Positions 4,946 to 50,299 are shown, counted from the stretch's first letter. The stretch is DNA of 64,000 bases from Candidatus Nanohalarchaeota archaeon (GCA_022729235.1 JALDAJ010000001.1:576001-640000), one strand, 5' to 3'. Notes: generated by a model from the sequence alone, not told the origin. A program made the numbers and translations.

Positions 4946-5095
4946 TTATCCGTGCTTGGTGTATCCGCACTTTCCGCAGCTTACGCGGTCTTCGTGTTCT
5001 GCGAGGAAGCTTCCGCACCTTGGACATTTTTCGCCTTCGTAACTGCCGTCTTCGCTGTATTTCTCCCAGAGCTGTACCTTGTCGTGCTTTGCCAT
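4946..5095 (-). CDS. rps27ae: 30S ribosomal protein S27ae (eS31)
   Basis: [24 protein letters not shown]; start reassigned to ATG 5095 after SD AAGGTGA. Confidence 0.92.
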
Positions 5096-5145
5096 TAAGC
5101 TATCACCTTGTGGTTGGTTAAGTCGAGAAAACTTGTTTTCGTCAT
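5095..5145 (-). repeat. Junction hairpin element forming coupling mini-[19 protein letters not shown]
   Basis: TAATG overlap with rps3 stop and TAATG overlap with rps27ae start; first 22 nt identical to the element at 50184. Confidence 0.75.
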
Positions 5146-6227
5146 TACTCTTCAACTCTGGTCTCTAACCAGTCAATGAATGTTGTGCGGTTTTTGTTGT
5201 CTTTTTCTGCTTCGAGTGCTGCTTCGTAGTCTGGTTCGTCGAGTTCTTCGAGCGCGTCTTTGGCGTCGCTGATTGTGTTGTCGACGATGTCCTCGTAGTC
5301 GGCTCCGCTTGATGTCTCGTCCTCGTCTTTTGTCTCTTCTTCGTCTCCAGTTTCTTCTTCCTCTTCTGCTTCTTCAACATCTTCGTCTTCCGTCTCTGGT
5401 TCGTCCTCGACTTCCTCAGGTTCTGTTTCTTCGGCTTCTTCCTTGATTTCGTCTCCTCTTTCCTCGAATACGTCTCTTACTTCGTTTTTGGAGATATCTT
5501 CGGTTTCTACTTCGAGTTCTTCCATTGCTTCTTCGATTCCTGCCGAGGTCATGTCGTCTGCTTCCACTACTACTCTTTCGATTCTTTCTTCCTGTGGAAG
5601 TGTCTCACCGTGGTCAATGACCTCATGTAGTATCTCTTCTTCGACGTCGACGTCCCGGTGTTTGAACTCTGGCATAGATTCCATTATTCTTACCTTGACG
5701 CCGATTGCGCCGGGCTTTGTTTTTGCGAGTTCGTATGCCTCGTCAACGTTCTCTTTGGAAGTATTTCCACATCTTTTCACGTAGCCGAACGAGAATTTTT
5801 CTGTCCGCCCTCTGTTACCTGATAGTTTGCCGGCGATTTCGATTTCTGCCCCTATGACTCCTGACTCCTTCATCCTGCGGAGGTAGGTGTATCCTACTCT
5901 CTTTGTTCTTCCGCCTTTTTCGAGCCATGAAGCCATCGATTTTGCGACTATCTCTGCGTCCCCGTCAGGATTCTCTATCTCGTTTACTTCTATCTGCGGG
6001 TTTTCAAATCCGAATTCTTCCTCCATATCCGCGGTGAGTTCACGAATCCGGGATCCGCCTCTTCCGATTACGAGTCCTGGTCTCTGTGCGTATACGACTA
6101 TCTTTGTTGATGTAGGTGTTCTTACGATTTCGGAGCGTGAGTATCCTGCTCCTTCTAGCTCTTCTTCCAGGTATTCATGCATCCTTACCTTTCTAGCGCC
6201 TTTGTCGATGAACTGTTTTTCCTGCAT
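5145..6227 (-). CDS. rps3: 30S ribosomal protein S3 with long acidic C-terminal extension
   Basis: [12 protein letters not shown] motif, [17 protein letters not shown]. Confidence 0.96.
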
Positions 6228-6640
6228 TATCGTTCACCTACGATTATCTTTACGTGTGCTGCTTTCATGGTTCTTCCACGGTGTCTTTTCGGTGTTCTAA
6301 ACTCTCTGCCCTGGTTGGTTATGAACTCCTGGATTTCCAGTTCGTCAATGTTCAGTCCTTCGTTTTCCGCGTTGTTCTTCGCGTTCCTTATGACGCCGAG
6401 TACTGCTTCTGCTGCCTTTACAGGGTAGCGTGCTTCTCCCTGTCCGGGTTTGTGTCCTGCACCTGAAAACTTTGTGTATGGTACAGGAAGCTCTTTTTCG
6501 ATTACTCGTTCAAGTTTGTTCTCCGCTTTCTCCACGGAGTCTTCTTTCACGAAGCGCCCGATTTCGGTTACGTCCTTCCAGGACACTCTTAGGTTGTGTC
6601 CTTCTGCTCTTGCCTGGTGTGGCTGTGTTTCTAGCGTCAT
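6227..6640 (-). CDS. rpl22: 50S ribosomal protein L22
   Basis: ARYPVKAA, NAKNNAE; start reassigned to MTLETQ at 6640. Confidence 0.93.
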   Translation of the reverse strand: MTLETQPHQARAEGHNLRVSWKDVTEIGRFVKEDSVEKAENKLERVIEKELPVPYTKFSGAGHKPGQGEARYPVKAAEAVLGVIRNAKNNAENEGLNIDELEIQEFITNQGREFRTPKRHRGRTMKAAHVKIIVGER

Positions 6641-6650
6641 TTTATCGTCT

Positions 6651-7034
6651 TTACTTGAGCGGTACGTGCTGTGAGGACCGTGTTGCTCCGAGTCCTGGTG
6701 CACTGTGCTGTACTTCTTTCCGGGTTTTTGCGAACTCTCCCAGGTAGTGTCCCAGCATCTCTTTTTCGATGTCTACTGGGACGAAGTCCTGTCCGTTGTA
6801 TACGTGGACTGTTTTACCTACCATTTCTGGTACTACTATCATCGACCTGAAATGCGTCTTGACCGAGTCCTTATCTTCAAGGTCTTCAAGTATTTTTTTC
6901 TCCTCTCTTCTAAGTCCTCTTTCGAGTTTCCTTTTCCCTCTTGAGTTAAGAAGTTCTGCAAACTCGTCTAGAGTCATTTCCTGTAGTTCTTCGAGCTTGT
7001 GTCCTCTGAACTTCCATTCCTCGTCATTACTCAT
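6651..7034 (-). CDS. rps19: 30S ribosomal protein S19
   Basis: KTHFRSMIVVPEMVG, GHYLGEF, GATRSS. Confidence 0.96.
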   Translation of the reverse strand: MSNDEEWKFRGHKLEELQEMTLDEFAELLNSRGKRKLERGLRREEKKILEDLEDKDSVKTHFRSMIVVPEMVGKTVHVYNGQDFVPVDIEKEMLGHYLGEFAKTRKEVQHSAPGLGATRSSQHVPLK

Positions 7035-7090
7035 CTCGAAAACACCTCTGATGTTTTCTGGGTTCTTGAAACTCTACGAGTTTTACTCAT
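7031..7090 (-). repeat. 56-bp hairpin element flanked by ATGAGTAA direct repeat; mini-ORF MSKTRRVSRTQKTSEVFSR*
   Basis: Two hairpins, internal GAGGTG SD, ATGA overlap with rps19 start. Confidence 0.75.
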
Positions 7091-7802
7091 CTGAATCACC
7101 TGAACTCTTCTTGTTACCTGTTCTCCGTGCAGAGATGCTTCCTACCTTGCTACCTGGTGAGGCGTGGCGCGAAACTGTCTTCGGCTGTCCTGGCTTTGCA
7201 GAACCTCCGAATGGGTGGTCGACCGCGTTCATTGCTACTGCGGAAACCGTTGGGTACTTCTTGCCTCTTGCCTTCATCGCCTTGCTCTTATTTCCTGCCT
7301 TGACGAATGGTTTGTCTTTTCTTCCGCCACCTGCAACCTTTCCGACAGTGGCTCTGCAGTTAGCATCCATCTTCTTGAACTCTTTACTTGGTAGCCTTAT
7401 TCTTACACCGTCTTTCTCATGTGTTACAACGAAAGCGTATGTTCCAGAAGATCTAACGAGTTTACCTCCGTCATTCGGCTGTAATTCGATGTTGTGAATC
7501 GGTACTCCTTCAGGGATTTCCCCGAGTGGTAGTACGTTTCCTTCTTCGATTGGTGCGGAGATTCCGACTTCGATCTCGTCTCCGACGTGAAGGTTTTCAG
7601 GAGCAAGGATGTTTCTTACGTCACCGTCCTCGAACTCCACTGCTGCTACCGGCGCGGTTCTTGCGGGATCGTGGACTATATCTACGACTGTCCCTGTCGT
7701 TTCGGCGTTCTTGTGCTCCACATCGCCCTTACCCCTGTGGGTCTTGGCCTGCCACGTGGAGCTTCCTTTTCCTCTTCTCTGTTGTCTGATTGGTGATCCC
7801 AT
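7083..7802 (-). CDS. rpl2: 50S ribosomal protein L2
   Basis: QRRGKG, HDPARTAP, AMNAVDHPFGG. Confidence 0.97.
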   Translation of the reverse strand: MGSPIRQQRRGKGSSTWQAKTHRGKGDVEHKNAETTGTVVDIVHDPARTAPVAAVEFEDGDVRNILAPENLHVGDEIEVGISAPIEEGNVLPLGEIPEGVPIHNIELQPNDGGKLVRSSGTYAFVVTHEKDGVRIRLPSKEFKKMDANCRATVGKVAGGGRKDKPFVKAGNKSKAMKARGKKYPTVSAVAMNAVDHPFGGSAKPGQPKTVSRHASPGSKVGSISARRTGNKKSSGDSDE

Positions 7803-7815
7803 CTTGGTAACCTCT

Positions 7816-8085
7816 CTAAATCATGCCGAGCCGGGTCGCGACATCCATCGCGTCGTCTTCCGCGCTCAGCCTGACGAAAGCCTTTTTCTTGGCCTGTGGT
7901 GTGATAGTAGTGTTTACTTTTTTAACCGTGACACCGAACAGTTCTTCGACCGCGTCTTCTACCTGGTTCTTGTTCGCGTCGATGTCAACCATCAGTACAA
8001 GCGTATTATCCTCGTCTACCTTGTCCATCGCTTTCTCTGTGAGGTGCGGGTTCTCGATTATGTTCCATGCCTGTTCTTCTTCCAT
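7816..8085 (-). CDS. rpl23: 50S ribosomal protein L23
   Basis: PHLTEKAM, KVNT, KKAFVRL. Confidence 0.96.
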   Translation of the reverse strand: MEEEQAWNIIENPHLTEKAMDKVDEDNTLVLMVDIDANKNQVEDAVEELFGVTVKKVNTTITPQAKKKAFVRLSAEDDAMDVATRLGMI

Positions 8086-8091
8086 TGTTTA

Positions 8092-8847
8092 TCAATCCAC
8101 GAAGAGCTGTTCTTCTCGGAGTTTTTCGAGAGCTTCGTCGCTCCAGACGATAAGCCTTCCTGGTTGTGTGCCGGGTGCTAGAAGCTCTGCGTTAAGGTTT
8201 TCCACGCGGACTGTTTCGACTCCAGGAAGGTTGTTCGATGCCTGGAATACTCCGTTGTCGTCCGCGACAACTAGTAGAGGACCAACCTTTCTCTTGTATT
8301 TTCTTCCCCTATTGGCTCCTCTGCCGGCTCTTACTTTCTTCTCGCTGACACGTTCGAGTTCTTCTTCGAGCCCGAGGTCTTCAAGTGCCTCTTTCAGTTC
8401 TGCAGTCTTTTCTATTCCCTCGATATCTTCTACTATAGGCAGGTTGCCGTCGTATTCGTGTCTTTCCTGTACAAGTTCGGCGTCGTTTGATGCTGCGATT
8501 CCGGACCTGATGGCTTTTCTTCTCTCTTTGTCGTTGATTTCTTCGTCCCAGTCTTTCTTCGCTTTAGGTCCGTGCGCTCTTCTACCGCCTCTGGTGTTCG
8601 GTGATTCCGCGCCGATTCCAGAGATCTGGCTTCCTCTTCTGAATACGATTTTCCGCGGTGTCCTTGACTGTCCGCGCCCTTTCTGTCCTCTGTACGCGTT
8701 GTTTCTTTTCTTCCAGTACGTTACGTGCTGTAGCCCTGCTTCTTCTGCGTGACCGTATGGTTGACGGTTCTTGGACTGGATGGATAATACTGCGCGCTTT
8801 ATGATATCCGGTCTTACTCTTTCGTTGAACTGCTCTGGTAGCTCCAT
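8092..8847 (-). CDS. rpl4: 50S ribosomal protein L4
   Basis: RPDIIKRAV, GGRRAHGP, LLAPGTQPGRL. Confidence 0.96.
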   Translation of the reverse strand: MELPEQFNERVRPDIIKRAVLSIQSKNRQPYGHAEEAGLQHVTYWKKRNNAYRGQKGRGQSRTPRKIVFRRGSQISGIGAESPNTRGGRRAHGPKAKKDWDEEINDKERRKAIRSGIAASNDAELVQERHEYDGNLPIVEDIEGIEKTAELKEALEDLGLEEELERVSEKKVRAGRGANRGRKYKRKVGPLLVVADDNGVFQASNNLPGVETVRVENLNAELLAPGTQPGRLIVWSDEALEKLREEQLFVD

Positions 8848-8854
8848 TTTCTAT

Positions 8855-9826
8855 TCACCTGTCGATGTGTGTTATCTCTGGTTCTCCTGGGTTTTTGTCT
8901 TTCCTGAGTGCGGTTCTCAGCCTTACGAGTCTCTTTTCCGGTCCTGGAACAGAGCCCTTGATTATTATGTAGTTAGAATTGACTTCTCCATAGTTCTTGA
9001 ACCCGCCTTCGCGCTGAACTTCTTCCGGGTCCTCTCCGTGGTCGATTATCCTCTTGTTGAGCTCTGTTCTATTGTTAAAGCCCTGTTGTCCGGGCAGTGG
9101 AACTCTCCATGAAAGTTTGTCAGGGTGCCACGGTCCGACGTTTCCCGCCTTTCTCCTCTTCTTCTGGGTCTTGTGACCGAGCTTCTTGATTCCGTAACGC
9201 TTGACAGGTCCTTCGACCCCTTTACCTTTGGTTACTGCGACTACGTCCGAGTACTCTCCGGGCTCGAAAACGTCCGAGAACTCGATTTCCTTTCCAATCA
9301 TTTCTTCCGCGTATTCCAGCTGTTCTTCTACGTCTCCGCCGAGCGCTACTTCAAAGTTCTCCGCTTTCTTCTTGGAGAGTCCTGCCTCCTGGGGCTGTGT
9401 GTGGACAAGTAGGCGGACCTCTGTAAGTTCGTCTTTGATTTCTTTAGCTGCTTCGAGGTTGTCCATATTTCCTTCTTTCGGAACGTCAGTTGCTCTCTGT
9501 AGCTCTTTTGCGGGCGAGTCTGTCCAGACCTCGGTGAAGACCTGTTTGCCCGTGTTGATGTCTTCAGTGTAGAAGCGTGCACCGTAAACTCTGAGGGGCG
9601 GTGCTTCTAGTATCGTTACTGGTGTCGCGATTTCCTGACCCTGCGTGGCACCTTCTGTATCGTCTATCATCAGGACTCTGCTCATCCCTACCTTGTAGCC
9701 CGCGAATCCGAGCGGTTTCAGTTCACCTGTTTCTTCCCACGTATCTATCTCTGGGTAGATCCTTTCCGCCCTTACCTTGGGCTTGTATCCGAGTGATCCG
9801 CTTCTTGGTACGCTTGGGTCTGACAT
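8855..9826 (-). CDS. rpl3: 50S ribosomal protein L3
   Basis: PRSGSLG, GYKVGM, TKGKG, GPWHP, KGSVPGP. Confidence 0.97.
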   Translation of the reverse strand: MSDPSVPRSGSLGYKPKVRAERIYPEIDTWEETGELKPLGFAGYKVGMSRVLMIDDTEGATQGQEIATPVTILEAPPLRVYGARFYTEDINTGKQVFTEVWTDSPAKELQRATDVPKEGNMDNLEAAKEIKDELTEVRLLVHTQPQEAGLSKKKAENFEVALGGDVEEQLEYAEEMIGKEIEFSDVFEPGEYSDVVAVTKGKGVEGPVKRYGIKKLGHKTQKKRRKAGNVGPWHPDKLSWRVPLPGQQGFNNRTELNKRIIDHGEDPEEVQREGGFKNYGEVNSNYIIIKGSVPGPEKRLVRLRTALRKDKNPGEPEITHIDR

Positions 9827-10025
9827 AGTTGATTATTCACCTCGAAACTGCCTGGCAGTTTCTGCGATTGCATGAACTCCTCAGGAGTTCAGCAAGTTCC
9901 ATAGGCCTCGCAAGAGGCTTGTCCATCCGAGAACTCGAAACTCCATATAGGAGTTTCTGCGACCCCGGAACCTTAGGCTCCGGGCATCTAGATGGTAATT
10001 CAACAGTCACAACCAAGTTTTATAA
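9827..10025 (-). promoter_or_regulatory. rpl3-operon promoter (TTTATAAA about 10018-10025) and hairpin-rich leader with SD GAGGTG
   Basis: Five stacked inverted repeats between 9841 and 9985, two matching the REP-like consensus. Confidence 0.6.
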
Positions 10026-10054
10026 AGGGAGCGATAGGGTGATTAGAAGCGCAA

Positions 10055-10249
10055 CTATGTATTGTAATCCAGGATGTCTTCGGCTATCTTTCTGAACTCC
10101 TCGCTGTCTAAATCTTCTATCTCTTCCCTGACTTCTTCCTCGGGAAGGTCGGCGAGCATGTCCTCTATCTCTTCCTGAAGTTTCTCCTCTATCTCCGCGT
10201 CGCCGGTGTTCGTCCTTGAGAACTCGTGCCGTATTTTTTCTAGGGACAT
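10055..10249 (-). CDS. Small acidic hypothetical protein
   Basis: 64 aa, acidic composition typical of this genome, co-oriented after rtcB. Confidence 0.65.
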   Translation of the reverse strand: MSLEKIRHEFSRTNTGDAEIEEKLQEEIEDMLADLPEEEVREEIEDLDSEEFRKIAEDILDYNT

Positions 10250-10263
10250 GTATTCTACTGTAG

Positions 10264-13110: not shown

Positions 13111-13203
13111 GTTATCTCCTTGGCGGGTAAGCTTTTTACAAACTGAGGGGCTTTGTAATACAGATTAAGGATTAATCGGGTTATAAGGTGTTTTTGTATT
13201 ACA

Positions 13204-13617: not shown

Positions 13618-13618
13618 C

Positions 13619-14206: not shown

Positions 14207-14230
14207 GTCCTCGGATTCTCTCGCGGTATT

Positions 14231-14467: not shown

Positions 14468-14498
14468 GAAGAATTATTAGTTGTAGAGTATGAAGAAT

Positions 14499-14672
14499 GT
14501 TCGCCGGGACTGTTCGAAGACTCTAGAGTTCCTGCATTGTGACCGGTGTTGCCGGTCGACCACCGGAGGTGGTCACTATGATCGAACTTGGTAAAGTTCG
14601 CCGGGACTGGGTTCGAAAATCAAAAGATTTTCTGCAACTCGAAACCAGAACTTGGTTTCTCGGATTTGAACC
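14499..14672. repeat. Two partial copies of the tRNA-Ser 3' end interleaved with hairpin repeats
   Basis: CGCCGGGACTG at 14502 and 14599; GGATTTGAACCC at about 14661; REP-like hairpins between. Confidence 0.75.
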
Positions 14673-14726
14673 CTGAACTTCTCGTGAGAGATGTGAGGAT
14701 AATCAAATCCAGCAAGGCGTCAAAGA

Positions 14727-14815
14727 CGCCGGGACTGGGATTTGAACCCAGGAGGGCCGTCACAGCCCACTGGTTCTCAAGACCAGCGCGATCAGCCAGA
14801 CTCCGCCATCCCGGC
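14727..14815 (-). tRNA. tRNA-Ser(UGA)
   Basis: GCCGGGA acceptor stem, CTGGT-CTTGAGA-ACCAG anticodon arm, long variable arm, TTCAAAT, G discriminator. Confidence 0.95.
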
Positions 14816-15000
14816 AGATTATAAATCTGCTGTGGATACAGAAACTCTTATGAGTTCCGAAGATTGTAAAATCTTCAGGACGTAGAAGATCCGTAGTGGA
14901 TCTTCGAGTTTCGCATCCCGGCAATAAGTCTAGTAGAAGTTAGCTGCTGGAAGATTTAAATTAGAGGAGGTTTTTTAGCCCGGAAAAAGAAATCTGGCTT

Positions 15001-15369: not shown

Positions 15370-15379
15370 TAAAGAAGAA

Positions 15380-15688: not shown

Positions 15689-15728
15689 AGCAATCTAGTT
15701 GGAGTTAAATCTTATAAATGGTGCAGAG

Positions 15729-27946: not shown

Positions 27947-29404
27947 TTACTGGGCTTCAAGCCCTTCTTCCTCAAGTTTTGCTCTAAGTGAGTTTTTCTC
28001 CATATCGTTCATTCCCGTGGAAACGTTCGCGCTCATAGCGAGATACGTTCTCAGTCCGATGTTCATACCCTCCGGTGTCTTGATAGGGTCGATGCGTCCC
28101 CACTGTGTCGGGTGCAGGTCACGCGCCTCGAAGTGCTGTCTCTCGCTTGAAAGAGGTGAGACAACATTTCTGAGGTGTGAAAGAGTCTTGATCCTGTTGT
28201 CTCTGTCAAGTCTCTGGCATACTCCTGTTCTACCTCCTACCCAGTTACCTGTCGCCATAGCTCCCATAATCTGCTTGCTGAGGGTGTCTGAGACGATTGT
28301 GGACTGGAGAGATGGTAGGCGTCCACGTTTCGCGCTCTTCCTGAAGTTGTACTTCATGCGGGCGAGCAGACCCCATTTCCCGAGGAACACTGACCTGAAC
28401 TGCATCTCCAGCAGTTCTCCCGCCAGGTTGAGCCTCTTGTTTGCGTAATGGTCCATGTCGTCTTCATTGATGTCGCCCTTTCCTAACGCGATGGTGTTTC
28501 GTATCATGTTTGCGAGGAACTCTGCCTTTTCCTCGCGGTACTCAGGTTCCTGCCCTAGGTGTGGTAGCAGGTAGTCGTCTAGTATGCTTTCTACACGTTC
28601 TTCGACATCCGATGTGATTCCTGCCTGGTTCGCCACGTATTCGTAGGCTTCTTCCTGGTTGCTCGCATCTGTTTCGTACATGTTCAGGTAGACATCGCTC
28701 GCGTACTCTTCTCCAATAGCCTGTACGATTTCACGGTCAGTCTCGTACCCGAGTGCCCTGATAAGTGCGACTGCCGGTGTTTTCTTCACGTTAGCGAACG
28801 AGATGTTGACGATGTCGTCATCGCGTCTGAGAACGTGTCGCTGTACGTAGCCTGCCTGTTCGGAGTTGATACGGCAGACCTGTTCTCCGTCGTCATCCTG
28901 GTAGATGGGCTTGTTGTCTGCCATCTCTTCCATGCAGATAAGCGTTTTCTCGGAGCCGTTGACTATAAAGTATCCGCCAGGGTCTTCAGGGTCTTCTCCT
29001 GCATCTCTTAACTCCTCGTCGTCCATGTCTGAGGTCCAGCACAGGTCGCCTCCGATCATTACAGGTATCTGACCTATCGTTACTTCCTCAGATTCCTGCT
29101 GTACTCCCTCGAAAATCGGTGTCATCGTGACCTTGATCTCTGAGGAATAAGTGAGGTCTCGCATCCGTGCTTCTTTCGGAAGCACCTTTCTTACGGACCC
29201 GTCTGCCTCGTTGATATGAGGTCTCTTGATATTTACGTCTACTATCTTGATAACCAGTTCCTCTCCTTCCGGGAGGTCGGGTTTAATCTCGCCTACCTCG
29301 TTTAGAATAGCCTGTATCCTGTCTTCAACAAAACGGTTGTAGGAGTCGATCTGGTGTTTAACCATGTTCTGCTCGATGAGCTGGGAGAGGAATTCTTCTT
29401 TCAC
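27947..29404 (-). CDS. rpoB2: RNA polymerase subunit B''
   Basis: HQIDSYN, DPGGYFIVNG, RDLHPTQWG, TPEG. Confidence 0.97.
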   Translation of the reverse strand: MKEEFLSQLIEQNMVKHQIDSYNRFVEDRIQAILNEVGEIKPDLPEGEELVIKIVDVNIKRPHINEADGSVRKVLPKEARMRDLTYSSEIKVTMTPIFEGVQQESEEVTIGQIPVMIGGDLCWTSDMDDEELRDAGEDPEDPGGYFIVNGSEKTLICMEEMADNKPIYQDDDGEQVCRINSEQAGYVQRHVLRRDDDIVNISFANVKKTPAVALIRALGYETDREIVQAIGEEYASDVYLNMYETDASNQEEAYEYVANQAGITSDVEERVESILDDYLLPHLGQEPEYREEKAEFLANMIRNTIALGKGDINEDDMDHYANKRLNLAGELLEMQFRSVFLGKWGLLARMKYNFRKSAKRGRLPSLQSTIVSDTLSKQIMGAMATGNWVGGRTGVCQRLDRDNRIKTLSHLRNVVSPLSSERQHFEARDLHPTQWGRIDPIKTPEGMNIGLRTYLAMSANVSTGMNDMEKNSLRAKLEEEGLEAQ

Positions 29405-29460
29405 TCGAAAACACCTCGGGTGTTTTCTGCGAGTCCAGAATCTCTTTTAGATTCGTTCAT
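29401..29460 (-). repeat. 56-bp hairpin element; mini-ORF MNESKRDSGLAENTRGVFE* ending in GTGA overlap with rpoB''
   Basis: CAGAAAACACCCGAGGTGTTTTCGAG nearly identical to the element before rps19; same 56-nt start-to-start spacing. Confidence 0.75.
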
Positions 29461-37798: not shown

Positions 37799-37801
37799 GG
37801 T

Positions 37802-39821: not shown

Positions 39822-39862
39822 GAGGCTCACAAATATATATTTTATTACTAGTAAATAGTTAC

Positions 39863-40531: not shown

Positions 40532-40566
40532 CCAAGTTTAAAAGCTTCATACTGCTTTCTCTTGAT

Positions 40567-41701: not shown

Positions 41702-41728
41702 TGTTTGAAGTGAGTAATAAAAATGTTG

Positions 41729-42694: not shown

Positions 42695-42769
42695 GGAAGA
42701 ACCTGCGGTACCGCTCTTTATCAAATTGTTATCGGTACAGCCTAACTTTCTCTGCGTCCGATTCACCGC

Positions 42770-44512
42770 TCAAAATTCTTTGAGGTCGTTTCCGTCCATG
42801 AAACCTTTGAGGCTCTTCTCTAACTCTTCAACATTTACTCTTACCTGTTCAGTGGAGTCCCTGTCCCGGAGAGTCACGGTCCCGTCTTCCAGGGTCTGGT
42901 GGTCCACGGTCGCGCATATCGGCGTACCGATCTCGTCCTGCCGCCTGTAACGGCGACCGATAGCGCCTGAATCATCATACTTCACGGAGAAACCGCTTTC
43001 TCTTAGGCTCCTGGCGACTTTTCGTGCGCGCTCTCCCATCCCGTCCTTATCCATCAATGGGAATACAGCCACTTCTACAGGTGCGACTTCCGCGGGTAAG
43101 CGGAGAACGGTTCTCTCCTCTCCATCTACTTCGTCTTCCTCAAGGTTATGCGCTAGAACCGTGTAGAGTATTCGGTCGACACCGAACGACGGTTCTACAG
43201 TTTCAGGCATGATATGTTCTCCGGTCTCCTCAACTTCTTTTCGTGTAAATCCTGTTTTCTCCACGGGAACATTTACAGTCTCGCCATCGATTTCCAAGCT
43301 GATGCTTTCCTGCTCCTCGAACCTCTCCGGTTCTTCCTCCGCGATTCTCCCGAGTTCGTCCGCGATATCTGAGGCGCGGTCACCGTATTCAGGTCCAAGG
43401 ACGCTCATGTCTGGACTGACGGTTGCTTTCTCCACGGTCTTGGGCTCGTCGTATGGCTTGAAAACAGTGAAGTCTTCGCCCGAGTGCTCCTGGTGCTTCT
43501 TGAGGTCGTAGCATCCTCTGTACGCGAAACCTGTGATTTCAATCCAGTCACCTCCGACTTCAGATTCGGCGTCCCAGCAGTCGCTCGCGTAGTGCGACCT
43601 CTCGTCCTCCAGGTGCTGCCGGAACCTGAACCGGTCCATATCGATACCTATCCGCTCGTACCACTTCTTTGAGATACCGAGATAGTATGCTATCCAGTCG
43701 CTCGCGACCACGCCGTTTTCGACTGCTTCCGCCACGGTCATCTCGAGTACTTCTCCGCCGTCTTTATCCTGCTCGTTGATAGGGTAAAGGCGGAGCTCGA
43801 CGTCTTCCACGTCCTCCATTTCCGGTTCGTCTTTTTCTGGATCGATAAAGAACTCCAGCTCTGCCTGCGTGAACTCTCTGACGCGGACAATCGATTTCCG
43901 CGGTGATATCTCGTTCCTGTAAGCCTTTCCTATCTGTGTAACCCCGAACGGCAGCTGGTTGCGGGCGTATTCTTTCCACTGAGGGAACTCGACGAAGATT
44001 CCCTGAGCTGTTTCAGGTCGTAAGTAGCCGGGTGAGGAATCTCCTGGACCGATGTTTGTGCCGAACATCAGGTTGAAATCGTCGACTTCCACGTCTGCCA
44101 GTTCCTCGCCGCAGTTCGGACACTGGAGGCTGTTTTCTTCGATTATCTCCATTATCCTATCGGTGGAGAAGCTCTCCGCCTCCTCGATATCCGTGTTATC
44201 CTCGACCAGATGGTCTGCCCTGATGGATTCGCCGCACTCGGGGCATTCTATTATCATGTCGTCGAAGGTCTCAAGGTGCCCGGATGCCTCGAACACGTCT
44301 TCAGGCATGATTGTCGGTGCTTCTATCTCCATGTTGCCTTCCTGGTAGGTGAACCGGTCTCTCCATACATCCTCCAGGTTTCTCTTCAAGGCGGTACCGT
44401 GGGGTCCGAACGTGTAGAAACCGGCTGTACCTCCGTAAATCTCATTGGAGGGAATAAAAAATCCGCGTCTCTTCGCCAGTTCTTTCAGGCTCTGTGTGGT
44501 ATTCTGGGTCAC
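42770..44512 (-). CDS. glyS: Glycyl-tRNA synthetase (alpha2 type)
   Basis: RRGF, YLRPETAQG, RNEISPR, REFTQAE, EPSFGVDR, GRRYRRQDEIG; start GTG 44512 after SD GAGGTG. Confidence 0.97.
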   Translation of the reverse strand: MTQNTTQSLKELAKRRGFFIPSNEIYGGTAGFYTFGPHGTALKRNLEDVWRDRFTYQEGNMEIEAPTIMPEDVFEASGHLETFDDMIIECPECGESIRADHLVEDNTDIEEAESFSTDRIMEIIEENSLQCPNCGEELADVEVDDFNLMFGTNIGPGDSSPGYLRPETAQGIFVEFPQWKEYARNQLPFGVTQIGKAYRNEISPRKSIVRVREFTQAELEFFIDPEKDEPEMEDVEDVELRLYPINEQDKDGGEVLEMTVAEAVENGVVASDWIAYYLGISKKWYERIGIDMDRFRFRQHLEDERSHYASDCWDAESEVGGDWIEITGFAYRGCYDLKKHQEHSGEDFTVFKPYDEPKTVEKATVSPDMSVLGPEYGDRASDIADELGRIAEEEPERFEEQESISLEIDGETVNVPVEKTGFTRKEVEETGEHIMPETVEPSFGVDRILYTVLAHNLEEDEVDGEERTVLRLPAEVAPVEVAVFPLMDKDGMGERARKVARSLRESGFSVKYDDSGAIGRRYRRQDEIGTPICATVDHQTLEDGTVTLRDRDSTEQVRVNVEELEKSLKGFMDGNDLKEF

Positions 44513-44674
44513 TTTTGACACCTCTGGAAAAGTTGTCGATTAGAAGCCTTAAAAACCGACAGGACGAAAGAGCTAGAACTGGTTAAAGGGTTATTCGAAA
44601 CACGTGAAGTGTTTCTCAACGCAACTTCCTGGAGAAAGCTGCGAGAGTCCAAAGTAGCCACCCTTGATTGACAT
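44509..44674 (-). promoter_or_regulatory. glyS leader ORF MSIKGGYFG... with putative +1 frameshift cassette
   Basis: ATG TCA ATC AAG GGT GGC TAC TTT GGA; 0-frame stop 44591; +1 frame open to TGA overlapping glyS GTG. Confidence 0.75.
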
Positions 44675-44739
44675 AGATATCACAGTTGGTTCTGCTCGTG
44701 GAAAGCTTAAAAACCGTCCGAGTATTACGATGTAATATA

Positions 44740-45927
44740 ATGCCGGGTTCTGGAATGAAGAGTTTGGAAGATGCAGAGTTGGAAGGTAAAAGCGTGGTTC
44801 TCAGGACTGATCTAAACCTTCCTGTCGAGGACGGCGAGCCGCAGAAGACGGTCCGGTTTGAACGCTACATTGAAACAGTGAAGGAGCTCAGTGACGAAGG
44901 TGCGAGGACGATGGTAATCGCGCACCAGGGGAGACCGGCGAGGAAGGATTTCATGTCGCTGGAAAGACACGCAGAACTGATGTCGGAAGAGCTAGGGCAG
45001 GACGTTAACTTCGTACGGAGCTTCTTCGGACCGGAGCTTGGAGATGCAGTCGCCTCGATGGAGGACGGCGATGTAGTACTGCTTGAAAACATACGTTTCC
45101 TCTCCGAGGAGCTTCAAAACTTGCCCTCCGAGAGGCATTCTGATGATTATTTTATTGAGAATCTCTCCAGGTACTTCGATATTTTTGTAGACGATGCGTT
45201 CTCTGCATCACACCGCTCCCACGGATCGATAGTTGGATTCGTACCGCGCCTCGAATCCTATGCAGGACCTGTTATGCAGCGTGAACTGGAGAACTGTGGC
45301 AGGGTAAGAGATGAGCTTGACAATCCGTTGCTGGTTCTAGGAGGGGAGAAACCTTCCGATTTGATAGGTATGATGGAGCAGGTAATTGACCGGGCTGAGA
45401 AAGTACTGCTGGGCGGTATCCCTGGCGAACTTGCACTCAAGCTCCAGGGAAACGATCTCGGCGGGAAATCCGAGTGGATAGAGGAGCAGGGCTTTGACGG
45501 TAAGAGCAAGGAGCTTCAAAGAATCATCGAAGAACACGAGGAAAAGATAGTTCTGCCTGTAGATGTCAGAACGGACTCAGGTAACCACAAGATCGGTGAA
45601 GTCCCGGAAGGAGAGATGACATGGGATATCGGAGAGGAGACGCGGGAAAGGTTCGTGGAAGAGATAGGTGACGCGGAATCGATTGTCATGAAAGGTCCTA
45701 TGGGTGCGTTCGAGGATTATCCTGAGGGCACGCGAGCGGTAATCGATGCGATAGCAGAAAACGATGGCTTTACAGTACTCGGCGGAGGACACACATCTTC
45801 ACTTATACACCGATTCGGTCATGACCTCGACGAGTTCACACACGTCTCCATCGCGGGCGGAGCATTTGTCCGGTACATGAGCGGGGAAGAACTGCCCGCG
45901 GTCGAAGCGCTCAGGGAGTATTCTTAG
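44740..45927 (+). CDS. pgk: Phosphoglycerate kinase
   Basis: RTDLNLP, AHQGRP, LLENIRF, DAFSASHRSHGS, GGGHT, HVSIAGGA; start 44740 or 44755. Confidence 0.95.
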   Translation: MPGSGMKSLEDAELEGKSVVLRTDLNLPVEDGEPQKTVRFERYIETVKELSDEGARTMVIAHQGRPARKDFMSLERHAELMSEELGQDVNFVRSFFGPELGDAVASMEDGDVVLLENIRFLSEELQNLPSERHSDDYFIENLSRYFDIFVDDAFSASHRSHGSIVGFVPRLESYAGPVMQRELENCGRVRDELDNPLLVLGGEKPSDLIGMMEQVIDRAEKVLLGGIPGELALKLQGNDLGGKSEWIEEQGFDGKSKELQRIIEEHEEKIVLPVDVRTDSGNHKIGEVPEGEMTWDIGEETRERFVEEIGDAESIVMKGPMGAFEDYPEGTRAVIDAIAENDGFTVLGGGHTSSLIHRFGHDLDEFTHVSIAGGAFVRYMSGEELPAVEALREYS

Positions 45928-45985
45928 GGTCCGGATGTTGCTGACTGTCGAAATATACTTAACGCAGACTTCACAATAATGACGT

Positions 45986-46152
45986 ATGCAGCAAGGTGGC
46001 TGTTTTTGGACTTTTGCATCTGAATGATTTAGACAGCAGTATTTCTATTCCGGGTGGATGTTTTTGGGCCATCTAGTCTTCTAAAGGACAGGTTACGCTT
46101 TTCCCTGAACTATCTCAGAATCTGCTCAGTAAGGGAGCTTTCATGGCTTTAA
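45986..46152 (+). promoter_or_regulatory. Tandem Trp leader with two GGCFW cassettes chained by +1 frames
   Basis: MQQGGCFWTFASE*; its +1 frame reads ...SISIPGGCFWAI*. Confidence 0.7.
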
Positions 46153-46294
46153 TCAATTAAATCGGTTTTTATACACTTCAACATATTTTCTAAGTCTTTT
46201 AGATAGAAATAGTCATTATTCTATCTTTTTAGACTCTAAAAACCTCTAAAAGCTATTTAAAAGTTTTCTAACAACTGGAAAACACGTGATTAAA

Positions 46295-46369
46295 ATGACA
46301 AACGACACACAAGACGAAACACAGGCAGAAGCCCGACAGGGGGGATGTTTTTGGAGAACAAAATCTTGA
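46295..46369 (+). promoter_or_regulatory. Trp leader ORF MTNDTQDETQAEARQGGCFWRTKS*
   Basis: CAG GGG GGA TGT TTT TGG; TTTAAA box at about 46256. Confidence 0.7.
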
Positions 46370-46389
46370 AGAAGTTGTAAAGGGGGGCA

Positions 46390-46725
46390 TTGCTGGAGCA
46401 GGGTAGAGAAAGGGCTGTTTCGGTAATTGATAACTGTCTAACGATTGATGTAGACTCTTTCGATGAGGAAGTCTATTCAGAGGTTTTTGAGGTGCTGTTT
46501 TCTCCTGAAGAAGGATATCTAAGAGATGTTCCAGAGGACTTCCAATTCCGGCTCAGAAAAATATCGAGGTTCACTGTCGGCTGGGGTACGGAGTACTCGG
46601 AAACATATTCCAATGAACTAACTGGCCGTGATATCCGGGAGATGCAGAGGAAGGCGGTTGAAGAATCGTACACAGTTGGCTATTCCTCTGAAAAGTTCAT
46701 CGAACTGTACGAGGAGGTGATGTAG
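46390..46725 (+). CDS. Hypothetical protein upstream of trpS; true N-terminus uncertain
   Basis: Acidic ORF with TTG start; would continue the leader +1 frame if G6 at 46382-46387 were G5. Confidence 0.6.
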   Translation: MLEQGRERAVSVIDNCLTIDVDSFDEEVYSEVFEVLFSPEEGYLRDVPEDFQFRLRKISRFTVGWGTEYSETYSNELTGRDIREMQRKAVEESYTVGYSSEKFIELYEEVM

Positions 46726-46786
46726 TATCGCGGTAAGTGAGAAAGATTCCACCGGATATAAGAGCGCTAGGGAGGAATGATTAACC

Positions 46787-47890
46787 ATGCCAGAGATAGA
46801 TCCGTGGGGAGACGTTGAAGTCGGAGAGTACCGTGAAAAGATGGAGAAGTTTGGTATCGAGCCGATCGAAGAGATAGCAGATAAGCTCCCTGACCACCGA
46901 TACATAAGAAGAGGGATAATCTTCGGTCACCGCGGGATGGACGAGTACCTGGACGCGCTCGACGACGGCGAGGACGTGGCGATGATAACTGGTATAATGC
47001 CGTCCGGCATGTTCCACCTCGGGCACAAGATAGTGGTCGACCAGGTGCTGATGTACCAGGAGATGGGCGCAGACGTAACTCTCACTGCGGCGGACATCGA
47101 AGCGCACAACACCCGCGGTATCTCGCTGGAAGACGCGCGTGAGATGGTTATCGAGCAGTACCTGACCAATTACGTCGCTCTGGGTCTCGACCTGGAGAAC
47201 GTTGATTTCTACTTCCAGAGCCAGGCAGGCAACGACCACCTTGCCCGCTCCAAACTTTTCGCGAAGCACCTGACACGGAACGAGATGGACGCCACCTACG
47301 GAGAACCAAGTCCTGGTAAGATAGCGTCCGCATTAATGCAGTACGCCGACATACTGAGACCGCAGTTCCCGGAGAACGGCGGACCGAAACCAACTGTTGT
47401 TCCTGTTGGTATCGACCAGGACCCTCACATAAGACTGACCCGGGAGGTCGCGCGGAAGGCGTCTCAAGACTTCTACAAGCCCGCATCCATTTACAACAAG
47501 TTCATGCGCGGGCTTCAGGGTGGGAAGATGTCGAGCAGCGATCCGAAGAGCTACATCGCGCTTACAGATTCTGTTGAAGAGGAGAAACAGAAGATCGACG
47601 AGGCGAAGACTGGTGGTCGTGACACGCTGGAGGAGCACCGTGAGAAAGGTGCGGACGTTGAAGAGGACATGGTCTTCGAACTACTTGCTTTCCACCTTAT
47701 CGAGGACGACTCCGAGCTTGAACGTATCCGTGAAGAGTATGAGTCGGGCGAGATGCTGTCCGGAGAACTCAAGCAGATAGCGAAGGAGAAACTGGAGGAG
47801 TTCCTCCTCGCGCATAAAGAGAGGAGAGAAGACGCGCGTGAAGAAGTCGAACAGTTCGTCGAGGAGAACGTAGAGTCAGAACTTGTTTAA
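46787..47890 (+). CDS. trpS: Tryptophanyl-tRNA synthetase
   Basis: FHLGH, VPVGIDQDPH, KMSSS, AKTGGR, GEMLSGELK. Confidence 0.96.
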   Translation: MPEIDPWGDVEVGEYREKMEKFGIEPIEEIADKLPDHRYIRRGIIFGHRGMDEYLDALDDGEDVAMITGIMPSGMFHLGHKIVVDQVLMYQEMGADVTLTAADIEAHNTRGISLEDAREMVIEQYLTNYVALGLDLENVDFYFQSQAGNDHLARSKLFAKHLTRNEMDATYGEPSPGKIASALMQYADILRPQFPENGGPKPTVVPVGIDQDPHIRLTREVARKASQDFYKPASIYNKFMRGLQGGKMSSSDPKSYIALTDSVEEEKQKIDEAKTGGRDTLEEHREKGADVEEDMVFELLAFHLIEDDSELERIREEYESGEMLSGELKQIAKEKLEEFLLAHKERREDAREEVEQFVEENVESELV

Positions 47891-47914
47891 GTCCGGCTCC
47901 AGTATTTCTGACTT

Positions 47915-48610
47915 ATGTTGCCCGAGTTGATACTGCGTGAGGAGGAAGAGGAGAACCTTCCTCTGCTTGCAGTTCTAGGTCTCGCATCAGGTCTGGCAGG
48001 ATTTATTGCTGCAAGAGCTCTTTTTCCATCGCAGATAGATCTTCTTACGGTGATTTTTGCCTCGATACCGCTTGTATACCCTCTCGTGACGTATTTCCTG
48101 GAGCGTGAGAACGAGTCGCGACCCCATCTCCCGGAGATACAGGTCTACGGTTCGATTTTCCTTGGAATGGCGGCAGCATTCTTTATCCTGGGCTTGTATA
48201 ATCCTGAGTTATTCTCATTGCAGAATGCTATTATAGGTGCTGCAGGGCATGCAGTCAATCCAGTATCCTTCACCACGGTCTTATCCAATAACCTGATGGT
48301 GTTCCTGGGGATTCTGGCTGTCGCGTCGATTATAGGGTCGGCAGGAGCCTTTATACTGACCTGGAATGCCTCAGTCTTAGGAGTCTTCATGGCAGGGCTT
48401 GTACGTGACTCTATTCTCATGCCGTTCGCCTACATCCCCCACGCGTCTCTGGAGATGGCAGGGTTCATAGTCGCAGGAGTTGCAGGTACAATGATCTCTG
48501 CCGCAGTCTACAGAGAGCATTTCGATAAGGATACATGGCTCGACCTCTCAAAGCTGGTCGCCACGGGTGTTGGACTGATAGTCATCGCGGCGGTGCTGGA
48601 GACTGCGTAG
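47915..48610 (+). CDS. SpoIIM-family membrane protein
   Basis: NNLMVF, WNASVLG, PHASLEMAG, AAVLE. Confidence 0.85.
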   Translation: MLPELILREEEEENLPLLAVLGLASGLAGFIAARALFPSQIDLLTVIFASIPLVYPLVTYFLERENESRPHLPEIQVYGSIFLGMAAAFFILGLYNPELFSLQNAIIGAAGHAVNPVSFTTVLSNNLMVFLGILAVASIIGSAGAFILTWNASVLGVFMAGLVRDSILMPFAYIPHASLEMAGFIVAGVAGTMISAAVYREHFDKDTWLDLSKLVATGVGLIVIAAVLETA

Positions 48611-48641
48611 ATATTAAAATCTGTGGTACAAGAAGAGAGTT

Positions 48642-48798
48642 ATGTCACCATCCGAAGCACAGGGAACACTGAAGGGTGGACGTTTTTTCCGCCTGTGAAA
48701 GGCAGATTAACAGCTCTATTTCTGGATTGGTTTTTTCGAGGTCTCGGACAGGTATCGCTCAGATATTAAAGTTTAATTTGGGAGGTGTAAACCTGTGA
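48642..48798 (+). promoter_or_regulatory. pheS leader ORF MSPSEAQGTLKGGRFFRL* with putative +1 frameshift cassette
   Basis: AAG GGT GGA CGT TTT TTC; 0-frame stop 48698; +1 frame open to TGA 48796-48798 overlapping pheS GTG. Confidence 0.75.
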
Positions 48799-50186
48799 GA
48801 CTTTCAAGCCAGTCAATACAGGTTCTGGAAGAACTGAGAGAACAGAGCCCACGCACGGTCGAAGATCTGGAAAAAGAGGGATACGACCAGTCGATGGTTC
48901 ACCGTGCCGCGATGGAACTTGAAGAAAAAGGAATTGTTAACTACAGGGAGGAGGAAGAGGTAGAATGGGTCATAACTCCTGCCGGCGAAGAAGTAATTCA
49001 AGAAGGCTCGCCCGAGCACCAGCTAATAGAGAGGCTTGCGGATGGAGCTGTACCGCTCTCCGAACTTGAAGATCTCGACCTGGATGTCGCGCTTGGAAAG
49101 GCGCGGGAGAAGGGATGGGTCCGTATCAAGGAGGGCGAGGTCTCGCTTACCGAACAGGGACGGCAGGGTCTCGGCTCGGACCGTGTTCAAAACAAGTTAA
49201 AGGACCAGGAATACGACGAAGAGGTCCGTGAGAGAGGGCTGGTCGCGCCGCAGGAAAGAACTGAACGAATACTGGATTTGACTGGTGAAGGAGAAGCCAT
49301 AGATACAGGAGAGCTAGGAGAGGAGTTCAACGTCGAGGCGCGGGTGAAAACACCGCGGACAGGTAAGAAACATTTCTACCGCGAGATAATGGACTACGCC
49401 CGCCGTGTGTGGAAAGACATGGGCTTCGAGGAGATGAGCGGTGACTACGTCACCTCCGGACTGATGAACTTCGACGCGCTTTACATCCCGCAAGACCACC
49501 CTGCCAGAGAGCTCCAGGACTCGTTCTTCATGGAGACTCCGGCGAAAACAGATTTATCCATTTATGGGGGAAAGGTGCAGGAAGTGAAAGACGTCCACGA
49601 GTTTGGTGGTGATGCCGGCGGTAAGGGATGGCAGTACGATTGGTCGCGTGAAGACGCGGAAAGAAACGTGCTGAGAACACATACAACTGACGTTTCCGCG
49701 AAGAGGCTCCACGAGATGGAGATTAACGAGGAGGAGCTACCGAAAAAGTTCTTCTGTCTTGGTAGAGCGTTCAGGAATGAGACGGTTGACAGGACTCACA
49801 ACGCAGAGTTCTACCAGACCGACGGTATCGTCGTAGGAAAAGACCTGAGCTTCCGCAACCTGAAAGGTTACCTGAGCGAGTTCTTCGAGAAGATGGGTTA
49901 CAGCGAGTTCCGGCTTATCCCCTCCTACTACCCCTACACGGAGATGAGCGTAGAGGTACAGGTCTGGGACGATGAAGACGAGGAATGGCTCGGGATGGGT
50001 GGAGCAGGTATGTTCCGCCCGGAAGTTGTGAAACCGATGCTGGGCTTCGAGGCGACAGTACTGGCATGGGGTCTAGGAATCGGGAGGATAGCCATGATAA
50101 ACGCCGAACTCAACGATATAAGAGAGCTTTACAGGAACGATATCGAAATCCTGGAACAGACACCTGTATGGAGGCCTGATCAGTAA
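48795..50186 (+). CDS. pheS: Phenylalanyl-tRNA synthetase alpha subunit
   Basis: NFDAL, PQDHPARELQD, LRTHTT, FRNE, YYPYTE, GAGMFRPEV. Confidence 0.97.
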   Translation: MRLSSQSIQVLEELREQSPRTVEDLEKEGYDQSMVHRAAMELEEKGIVNYREEEEVEWVITPAGEEVIQEGSPEHQLIERLADGAVPLSELEDLDLDVALGKAREKGWVRIKEGEVSLTEQGRQGLGSDRVQNKLKDQEYDEEVRERGLVAPQERTERILDLTGEGEAIDTGELGEEFNVEARVKTPRTGKKHFYREIMDYARRVWKDMGFEEMSGDYVTSGLMNFDALYIPQDHPARELQDSFFMETPAKTDLSIYGGKVQEVKDVHEFGGDAGGKGWQYDWSREDAERNVLRTHTTDVSAKRLHEMEINEEELPKKFFCLGRAFRNETVDRTHNAEFYQTDGIVVGKDLSFRNLKGYLSEFFEKMGYSEFRLIPSYYPYTEMSVEVQVWDDEDEEWLGMGGAGMFRPEVVKPMLGFEATVLAWGLGIGRIAMINAELNDIRELYRNDIEILEQTPVWRPDQ

Positions 50187-50299
50187 TGACGAAAACAAGT
50201 TTTCTTAAGCTCGAAAACCGTAGGTTTTCTGCAGTCGAGAAGACTCATAGAGTCTTCGACCTCGCCAACCACGAGGTGGTAGCCGAGTGCCTCACGTAA
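50184..50299 (+). repeat. Junction hairpin element with nested 51-nt insert; mini-ORF MTKTSFLKLENRRFSAVEKTHRVFDLANHEVVAECLT*
   Basis: Homologous to 5095-5147; TAATG overlap with pheS stop; supplies GAGGTGG SD for pheT. Confidence 0.75.

Follow-up and report, generated by a model that had tools for sequence, protein, structure and literature searches.

Palindromic repeats at essential operon junctions of a Nanohalarchaeota archaeon are candidate translated relay cassettes

How can an operon of essential genes accommodate a palindromic insert between one gene's stop codon and the next gene's start codon? The question is raised by a 64,000-nucleotide stretch of DNA from a Candidatus Nanohalarchaeota archaeon (GCA_022729235.1, JALDAJ010000001.1; from here on, the window), in which inserts of this kind lie at four gene junctions: rps3/rps27ae (J1), rpl2/rps19 (J2), rpoH/rpoB'' (J3), and pheS/pheT (J4). 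One study reports that in Haloferax volcanii and E. coli termination-reinitiation coupling is nearly lost once the spacer measures about 20 nucleotides (nt) (PMC10666635), and sections of another suggest that RNA left untranslated is open to FttA-dependent polarity in archaea (PMC12548453). Hence, where junctions are coupled, harm is to be expected from an insert of 50 to 100 nt that ribosomes have no means of crossing. A preliminary description of the window had proposed that such elements are tolerated in essential operons only when they rebuild the termination-reinitiation relay, or else have been domesticated as translational spacers. All four inserts belong to one modular family of non-coding palindromic repeats, which occurs across the archaeal order concerned. 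Judging from the sequences, we consider it probable that these gain- and loss-prone palindromes persist at coupled junctions only as translated relay cassettes, in which a mini open reading frame (mini-ORF) would carry ribosomes across.

What do the four inserts look like? The source genome (G000) is a single contig of 1,027,595 bp with 48.5% G+C, of which the window covers bases 576001-640000. Its gene complement is archaeal (split rpoB'/rpoB'', rpoH, rps27ae), as is the gene order rpl3-rpl4-rpl23-rpl2-rps19-rpl22-rps3; these genes, and all of those flanking the four junctions, were identified by NCBIfam models above curated cut-offs. The small genome and acidic proteins suggest a DPANN-type, nanohaloarchaeon-like organism. 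At J1, on the minus strand, the rps3 stop lies at 5147-5145 and the rps27ae ATG at 5095-5093. The J1 mini-ORF (5145..5095) has 16 codons plus stop and TAATG at both ends; it holds a weak hairpin, GAAAAC-AA-GTTTTC (5127..5140), which is a 5' module common to J4, and the Shine-Dalgarno (SD) motif AGGTGA (5103..5108) located 7 nt upstream of the rps27ae ATG. The J2 mini-ORF (7090..7031, minus strand; 19 codons plus stop) begins within the last rpl2 codons and ends in an ATGA overlap with the rps19 start. It is accompanied by an 8-nt direct repeat, ATGAGTAA, whose upstream copy (7090-7083) includes the rpl2 stop and an orphan ATG and whose downstream copy (7034-7027) lies at the rps19 start. The first J2 hairpin is AAACTC-GTA-GAGTTT (7069..7083); the second, the SD hairpin (7038..7058), has 9 bp including one U.G pair and carries the SD GAGGTG in its loop and 3' arm. 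The J3 mini-ORF (29460..29401, minus strand), also of 19 codons plus stop, starts with an ATG 7 nt past the rpoH TGA and ends in a GTGA overlap. Its first hairpin is GAATCT-AAAAG-AGATTC (29438..29454) and its SD hairpin is GAAAACACC-CGA-GGTGTTTTC (29407..29427), to which the minimum free energy (MFE) fold adds an outer CUCG/CGAG helix reaching the GTG start. The longest mini-ORF, that of J4 (50186..50299, plus strand; 37 codons plus stop), opens with TAATG at the pheS stop and ends 13 nt past the pheT GTG (50287). It contains hairpin a, GAAAAC-AA-GTTTTC (50191..50204), identical to the J1 module; hairpin b, GAAAACC-GTA-GGTTTTC (50213..50229); hairpin c, GAAGACTC-ATA-GAGTCTTC (50239..50257); and a short SD hairpin, ACCAC-GAG-GTGGT (50268..50280), with the SD GAGGTG 8 nt upstream of the pheT GTG.

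The codon counts, overlaps, repeat, and start-to-start distances (50, 56, 56, and 101 nt for J1 to J4) given in the preliminary description were all reproduced from the sequence. The same holds for the SD motif before each downstream start, which reads (A/G)AGGTG at a distance of 7 to 8 nt in all four cases. BLAST of the junctions against the genome bore out the claim of two homologous pairs: J1 matches J4 at 24 of 24 nt in the 5' part and at 17 of 19 nt in the 3' part, and J2 matches J3 at 24 of 26 nt. The claim that each insert contains hairpins stands for J3, J4, and J2 (RNAfold z-scores of -2.88, -2.74, and -1.53) and is weak for J1 (-0.27). Only a 3- to 4-nt CTCG/CGAG symmetry is visible at the insert ends, the elements consisting otherwise of internal hairpins. 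The flanking repeats are 4 to 8 nt and of variable length (ATGAGTAA at J2, TAATG at J1, ATGAA/GTGAA at J3 and at rps17/rpl14). Tandem Repeats Finder detected no tandem-repeat array at any of the four junctions, and a search of the whole window against Rfam at gathering thresholds returned three tRNA matches and nothing else.

Are such inserts confined to these four junctions? A genome-wide search for copies of both types returned many more, in G000 and across the order. Listing the hairpin-containing same-strand junctions of G000 yielded about 20 more with the anatomy of J1 to J4. A unit measures about 45 to 60 nt, and doubles about 100 nt. The unit opens with a start codon that is placed at the upstream stop or overlaps it (ATGA, TAATG, or TGATG); this is often the orphaned original start, the original SD remaining in the last codons of the upstream gene. 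There follow one or more hairpins with the stem GAA..C/G..TTC, most commonly GAAAATC-NNN-GATTTTC, with linkers such as TCGCA and TGCAG, and then a terminal hairpin such as GAAA(A/T)CACC-loop-GGTG(A/T)TTTC. After 2 to 6 nt more, a stop codon overlaps the downstream start (TAATG, ATGA, or GTGA). The likeness within the two pairs is real, but what had been called two sub-families are variants of one modular hairpin family. Genes were called with a crude script of our own (1192 genes, 89.6% coding), a caveat that every use of "intergenic" carries. Perfect hairpins with a stem of at least 7 bp are not in excess genome-wide (624 versus 643 in a Markov-3 control); it is their placement that is unusual, 290 of the 624 lying within the 10.4% of the genome called intergenic. 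Perfect hairpins of the GAA type number 51, in both orientations, 46 of them in intergenic sequence. The exact hairpin GAAAATC-N3-5-GATTTTC is present in 51 of 70 genomes of the order, with 14 copies in G000 and up to 19 elsewhere, in genomes of about 1 Mb. A control pattern consisting of the same hairpin read backwards had no copies in 69 of the 70. Loops of the exact hairpin are mostly AAA, AGA, GGA, or GAA in one orientation. A relaxed hairpin finder was rejected as too permissive (526 calls), and its surplus of sense over antisense folds (107 versus 39 of 146) was uncontrolled for composition.

The genes that flank the elements, again named with NCBIfam, belong largely to the translation and transcription apparatus. 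Ribosomal-protein junctions of G000 that carry elements are rps28e/rpl24e, rps17/rpl14, rpl14/rpl24, rps4e/rpl5, rps5/rpl30, rpl11/rpl1, and rpl1/rpl10; further pairs are rps6e/aIF2-gamma, rps9/rpoN, spt5/rpl11, an unnamed gene with rpl18e, and the four junctions of the window. The remainder are topo VI B/A, KH protein/topo VI B, ATPase F/A, and five further pairs in which one or both genes are unnamed. Altogether, 16 of 23 junction elements in G000 lie between genes for ribosomal proteins, RNA polymerase, aIF2-gamma, Spt5, or aminoacyl-tRNA synthetases, and most of the others separate subunit pairs (for example, topo VI B/A and ATPase F/A).

Do relatives carry the same inserts? The relatives in our genome collection have genomes of 0.6 to 1.7 Mb, and a search for relatives at the level of the phylum returned the same order only and added nothing. 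Empty and filled versions of the same sites, which the preliminary description had named as a way to check its proposal, were both found: orthologous junctions were either empty (an overlap or at most 15 nt) or filled in quanta of about 50 or about 100 nt. J2 provides a precise empty site. Among 19 relatives' loci, one of which was N-masked, the junction was empty in G005, filled in G001, G006, and G011, and occupied by short spacers in the other 14. In G005 (locus L002) the sequence reads ...GATGAGTAATGAC, and the overlap between the rpl2 stop and the rps19 start is exactly one copy of ATGAGTAA. The same-genus genome G001 has a homologous insert between ATGAGTGA and GTGAGTGA, and G006 has a different insert with TAATG at its end. 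At the rpl2/rps19 junction of G011 (locus L014), a site occupied by an overlap or a hairpin element in other genomes, the insert measures 328 nt and itself contains an ORF of about 100 codons. The J3 insert was found in G000 only and in 0 of 18 readable relatives, including G001. J4 is empty in G001 and G005, and G007, G011, and G008 have family elements of their own there. In G024, which belongs to another family (locus L053), pheS and pheT are separated by a 107-nt GC-rich hairpin insert between 14-nt direct repeats, GGGGTGGTTGAAGT; this suggests that junction duplication also takes place in other families of the order, where the hairpin sequence is a different one. At J1, a related element is present in G001, a bare TAATG overlap in G012, and spacers of a few nt in G005 and others. 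Upstream of rps27ae in G006 and G007 (loci L144 and L145), the last codons of the upstream gene themselves form a GAAGGC-loop-GCCTTC hairpin with the stop codon in the loop, which is another way for a hairpin module to sit on a stop codon.

We surveyed five junction types from two ribosomal-protein clusters in 32 family genomes, with one duplicated locus removed. Of 156 junction instances, 29 were filled, and spacer lengths were sharply bimodal: at most 15 nt, or else 49 to 69 nt or 93 to 112 nt, the long forms being built from differing hairpin modules and not from tandem copies. At empty junctions the downstream SD lies within the last codons of the upstream gene; at filled junctions this old SD now stands upstream of the mini-ORF start, and the element brings a new one. 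Downstream starts that adjoin elements are often GTG, in a recurrent ...TTTCGAGTGA end. The filled fraction rose with the hairpin load outside the examined junctions (Spearman 0.70 across these 32 related, non-independent genomes), and genomes with at least seven exact hairpins had 23 of 73 junctions filled.

If the inserts are translated across, their reading frames should be linked to the flanking stop and start codons. To quantify this link in G000, we took the 381 same-strand spacers of 30 to 160 nt, 20 with a family hairpin and 361 without, and scored a strict bridging ORF, that is, an ATG ORF starting near the upstream stop and ending between -8 and +4 of the downstream start. Such an ORF was present at 15 of the 20 hairpin junctions and at 27 of the 361 others (odds ratio 37, Fisher p = 3.6e-12). 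The test is conservative, because J1 and J2 are missed by the perfect-hairpin filter and were counted among the other spacers. Two of the non-strict cases are J4, whose ORF runs 13 nt past the start and so overshoots the strict limit by 10 more, and rps4e/rpl5, whose ORF stops inside the SD. Across all same-strand spacers of 20 to 200 nt, an ATG bridging ORF was found in 43 of 434, versus 30.7 +/- 4.2 in shuffles; this excess is small, so the frame effect is carried by the hairpin class. A version of this test that took the most upstream in-frame start was faulty and was discarded; it gave 58 of 434 versus 49.5 +/- 7.4 in shuffles, no enrichment. At the relatives' ribosomal-protein junctions, 29 of the 32 spacers of at least 30 nt (outside spt5/rpl11) were bridged by an ATG ORF, in contrast to 2 of 18 AT-rich, hairpin-less spt5/rpl11 spacers. 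The frame was also open in all six double-length elements (6/6), which add 13 to 18 codons relative to single-length elements at the same junction. Random frames without a link to stop/start overlaps, the outcome set beforehand as refuting the proposal, were therefore not seen in G000 or in its relatives.

The terminal hairpin involves the ribosome-binding site of the next gene. The 3' end of the 16S rRNA reads GGATCACCTCC, so that in the last hairpin the SD forms the 3' arm, while the 5' arm (AUCACC) mimics the anti-SD at the 16S 3' end. We aligned 38 terminal hairpins from G000 and 16 other genomes over a 9-bp helix. In this alignment 86.9% of cells were paired, versus 71.6% +/- 1.5 in shuffles, none of 500 of which reached the observed value; slid controls gave at most 56.5%. 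Double-sided changes occurred at all nine pairs (9/9), with 38 compensatory cells against 11.9 expected. On the sense strand, 18 G.T/T.G pairs were counted versus 6 A.C/C.A pairs, a modest hint that RNA is the selected molecule. We considered and rejected a K-turn reading of the motif CUC-GCA-GA...UC-GAG, in which the pairs beside the bulge are Watson-Crick and not tandem G.A.

Family hairpins also occur away from protein junctions. The 51 perfect copies in G000 divide into 20 within short same-strand junctions, 19 within longer same-strand gaps, 6 in divergent and 1 in convergent intergenic regions, and 5 inside called genes. Those in long gaps are mostly located inside long tRNA introns or at 34 to 110 nt from a tRNA gene; three occupy rRNA-sized gaps. 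Copies at short same-strand junctions are mostly framed; about half of the perfect copies are elsewhere, where frame is irrelevant. ARAGORN with intron detection reported 35 tRNAs in the genome, many with long introns of 52 to 203 nt. At least five introns share a family organization, an CCTCAAGTTCTCC...GGAGAACGAGGAC hairpin followed by a GAAGAYC-loop-GRTCTTC hairpin, the latter being the same module as at the operon junctions. Searches of the one-contig G000 genome with the IS200/IS605 TnpA model (NF033573, 0 matches; a control search matched 5 of 14 reference genomes) and with TnpB models found neither protein; the search for transposition proteins was limited to these two.

The repeat family, the filled/empty polymorphism, the frame association, and the covarying SD-sequestering hairpin fit the relay idea. 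A ribosome that ends the upstream gene would reinitiate on the mini-ORF, melt the hairpins while translating it, and terminate on top of the freed SD and start codon, from which it could reinitiate on the downstream gene. In this way the termination-reinitiation coupling that a 50- to 100-nt spacer would otherwise abolish would be restored. We infer that the mini-ORFs may be translated, that coupling may be the selected trait, and how the elements may have spread; it is from patchy presence only that we infer mobility.

Several observations weigh against this relay reading. The J1 insert is barely structured, its fold being no better than shuffles, and 5 of the 20 hairpin junctions in G000 are without a strict bridging ORF. 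Genomes without the exact hairpin (n = 9) have just 1 of 39 junctions filled, so the elements are dispensable; since the filled fraction follows hairpin load, the inserts are also lineage specific, as expected of a proliferating repeat. Hairpin stems are without TA and TG dinucleotides, which makes open frames cheap in these elements, and wherever a stop/start target is duplicated, the orphan ATG and the terminal stop come at no cost; selection is accordingly not needed for part of the ORF signal. The presence of hairpins in both orientations and in tRNA introns and flanks points to a property that has nothing to do with translation. Between genera, elements are 70 to 77% identical, compared with 28 to 48% at 4-fold sites of the next gene, yet elements at the same junction (0.70 identical) are little more alike than those at different junctions (0.66; shuffled baseline, 0.55). 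The likeness between junctions means that conservation between genera is not cleanly assignable to vertical purifying selection; a family consensus is maintained, by selection or by turnover. Finally, the gene calls come from a crude script, and the related genomes are non-independent samples.

How do other explanations compare? One possible, though unlikely, account is that the palindromes are purely selfish or neutral, the mini-ORF being a by-product of insertion at stop/start overlaps, short target duplication, and stop-poor sequence, and that the downstream gene uses ordinary SD-dependent initiation from the SD of the element. Dispensability, patchy distribution, the correlation of the filled fraction with hairpin load elsewhere, the short flanking repeats, and the copies in non-coding niches without ORFs all agree with it. 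A by-product, however, predicts the right frame in about one-third of cases, which is hard to square with the frames of the relatives' junctions and of the long forms, and an SD hairpin that covaries and sequesters the SD would hinder independent initiation. The excess of element identity over adjacent 4-fold sites also argues against neutrality, albeit with the qualification that elements at different junctions are 66% alike. That the mini-ORFs instead encode functional small proteins is the least probable of the explanations considered. Some same-junction copies from different genera do share a frame and similar peptides, but the same hairpin is read in different frames among copies (for example, J2 in G000 versus G001) and variation is concentrated in the hairpin loops and not at third codon positions, so that the peptide is not the conserved entity. 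The 37-amino-acid J4 peptide likewise had no NCBIfam match up to E = 1.

Alternatively, the hairpins could be RNA cis elements for a conserved trans-acting factor, a binding protein or ribonuclease that processes, stabilizes, or co-regulates transcripts of the translation apparatus (ribosomal-protein mRNAs, tRNAs, rRNA), with the mini-ORF secondary. We regard this as doubtful. The same 7-bp stem with purine-rich triloops recurs across the order, modules lie in or near tRNA genes and in rRNA-sized gaps, neither of the two transposition proteins searched for was found, and wobble pairs outnumber A.C pairs on the sense strand, all of which would suit such a factor. Against it, modules occur in both orientations within sense transcripts, many family genomes have zero hairpins, no candidate factor was identified, and the frame and the stop/start placement are left unexplained. 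It is very improbable that the inserts are intervening sequences removed by splicing, as relatives of the tRNA introns with the same module, and that their removal from the mRNA restores the overlap. The direct repeats at the borders and the GAAGAYC hairpin within the long introns speak for it; nevertheless, the MFE folds of the four junctions have no bulge-helix-bulge at the borders (no dedicated search for this motif was run), and neither an SD at the correct spacing of 7 to 8 nt nor a maintained ORF would be selected in an insert that is removed.

Under the relay reading, were the inserts tolerated or domesticated? The frame and the empty/filled evidence support the preliminary proposal as a whole, and its two branches are not separable on these data. 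Because sister genomes do without the inserts, tolerance of elements that rebuild the relay is better supported than domestication. A bolder scenario, which we advance as a speculation unlikely to hold in all its parts, is that a transposase-less hairpin module colonizes all non-coding niches that the translation apparatus offers, from tRNA introns and the flanks of tRNA and rRNA genes to ribosomal-protein and RNA-polymerase junctions. At junctions it might have been domesticated into an obligate relay, the anti-SD mimic locking each downstream SD and forcing sequential translation of the cistrons; the shared stem and triloop might serve as a handle for one trans-acting factor, and the module might spread through template switching from one stop/start overlap to another, by which entire cassettes, from ATG to stop, would be moved. 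Template switching of this kind, if true, would explain the conservation of frame without a transposase.

Which known systems are most similar? Mycobacterial interspersed repetitive units (MIRUs), which were reportedly described by Supply et al. in 1997, occur as tandem direct-repeat arrays. They are the closest natural analogue of the elements described here, and bicistronic design the closest engineered one. According to passages of PMC12548453, the mycobacterial MIRU is an apparently mobile short repeat that inserts at start codons and contains an internal ORF coupled at -4, and this coupling is thought to minimize the cost of insertion. Here, too, a repeat lies between co-oriented operon genes, and its ORF begins on the upstream stop or close to it and overlaps the downstream start (-4 or -1) in the bridged cases counted above (15/20 in G000, 29/32 in relatives). 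MIRUs differ in being bacterial and arrayed, whereas the archaeal elements are hairpin modules with an SD-sequestering hairpin, are also found in tRNA introns and flanks, and form no array at J1 to J4; the comparison is one of described features. In bicistronic design, as outlined in parts of PMC12548453, PMC5995908, and PMC6302717, a short leader cistron holds the SD of the gene of interest, its stop overlaps the start of that gene, and the translating ribosome clears inhibitory structure at the ribosome-binding site. The short ORF here similarly contains the downstream SD and has a stop/start overlap, a functional likeness and not homology, but the cassette is natural, repeated, and intergenic, would relay from the upstream gene and not from a promoter-proximal SD, and has its SD paired. 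Related logic is found in the RNA-unfolding model of bacterial ribosomal-protein operons, in which, in the sections of PMC12548453 that treat it, a locked downstream ribosome-binding site is opened only by ribosomes on the preceding cistron. The downstream ribosome-binding site is predicted to be locked in secondary structure here as well; the bacterial locking sequence lies within the upstream gene, whereas here it is an inserted repeat with its own relay ORF.

Palindromic repeats offer a second set of comparisons. Rickettsia palindromic elements are selfish repeats of a reduced genome that survive by in-frame translatability inside protein-coding genes. The elements here are likewise palindromic, reside in a compact genome, and are predicted to be translatable in frame, but those of Rickettsia become part of proteins, whereas these form separate mini-cistrons between genes. 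REP/BIME sequences, and REPINs with RAYT, are described in portions of PMC2817692, PMC3116915, and PMC3733652 as extragenic palindromes of 20 to 40 bp, present in many copies and both orientations, composite, and often in operons; a conserved GTAG or CGTC head at one end is noted in part of PMC3733652. The elements resemble REP/BIME in form: of the 51 perfect palindromes of G000, 46 are intergenic, and both orientations occur. They differ in that no RAYT-relative TnpA (IS200/IS605) and no TnpB was found in the genome, that no GTAG/CGTC head is seen, the flanks reading CTCGCA, CGAG, or TGCAG, and that copies number tens and not hundreds; stop-to-start framing, moreover, is not a REP feature. 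With respect to MITEs (miniature transposable elements with inverted repeats), the family offers one precise empty site (J2 in G005), flanking repeats of variable length, and terminal symmetry of 3 to 4 nt only.

Other features of the window and genome deserve mention. Two family hairpins lie inside a duplicated 3' end of tRNA-Ser (14615..14659), and two more immediately upstream of this gene (14859..14905; tRNA-Ser, 14725-14816, minus strand). Downstream of tRNA-Ser (14500-14740, minus strand), the tRNA 3' end (GGGTTCAAATCC...CAGTCCCGGCG) is repeated and split by two family hairpins, and some 100 nt beyond follows a third, partial copy (CAGTCCCGGCGAAC); the arrangement resembles attachment-site-like repeats or a series of insertions. 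At 55125-55251, the window also holds a tRNA-Val whose intron is 52 nt long, and the family introns lie outside it, at genome positions 268378-268570, 298036-298171, 820519-820663, 235815-235965, 227634-227780, and 92052-92328. The genome has a second repeat, a 9-mer (TGTAATACA) with 18 occurrences on both strands together (about 8 expected at uniform base frequencies), which forms at least five inverted pairs about 50 nt apart, often beginning right at a stop codon (window 13154-13203; genome 285266/285315, 562242/562291, 1003479/1003528, 680653/680722, and 782808/782849). These pairs could be a separate MITE-like or terminator-like unit. The rps3 ORF (5148-6227, minus strand) encodes 360 amino acids, of which NCBIfam models span residues 2 to 205 only; the C-terminal 150 amino acids make up an acidic extension. 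Conservation of the end of this extension is seen across the family, and the conserved end also occurs in genomes without an rps3 match within 1.5 kb on either side of rps27ae. Same-strand intergenic distances are bimodal genome-wide, with a second peak at 30 to 60 nt (212 of 785 pairs). Most spacers of this length are AT-rich and without hairpins, and they may be minimal promoters for leaderless transcripts. An SD-like motif precedes only 459 of the 1192 called genes.

What would a relay of this kind mean for these organisms? A relay mini-cistron with a locked SD would be a natural way around the limit of about 20 nt on archaeal coupling. It is not known to have been described in archaea, and we found no description of one for Nanohaloarchaeota-type genomes in the literature searched, nor in passages of PMC10266531. 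A consequence for annotation is that the inserts give rise to spurious small ORFs and to shifted starts (GTG for ATG) in ribosomal-protein operons. The module common to long tRNA introns may link intron evolution with intergenic repeats in DPANN-type archaea. The same essential junctions exist in dozens of independent versions, some filled and some empty, across a phylum of genomes of about 1 Mb, and these constitute a natural experiment that informs on how selfish DNA persists in highly compact genomes and on the minimal needs of a coupling cassette.

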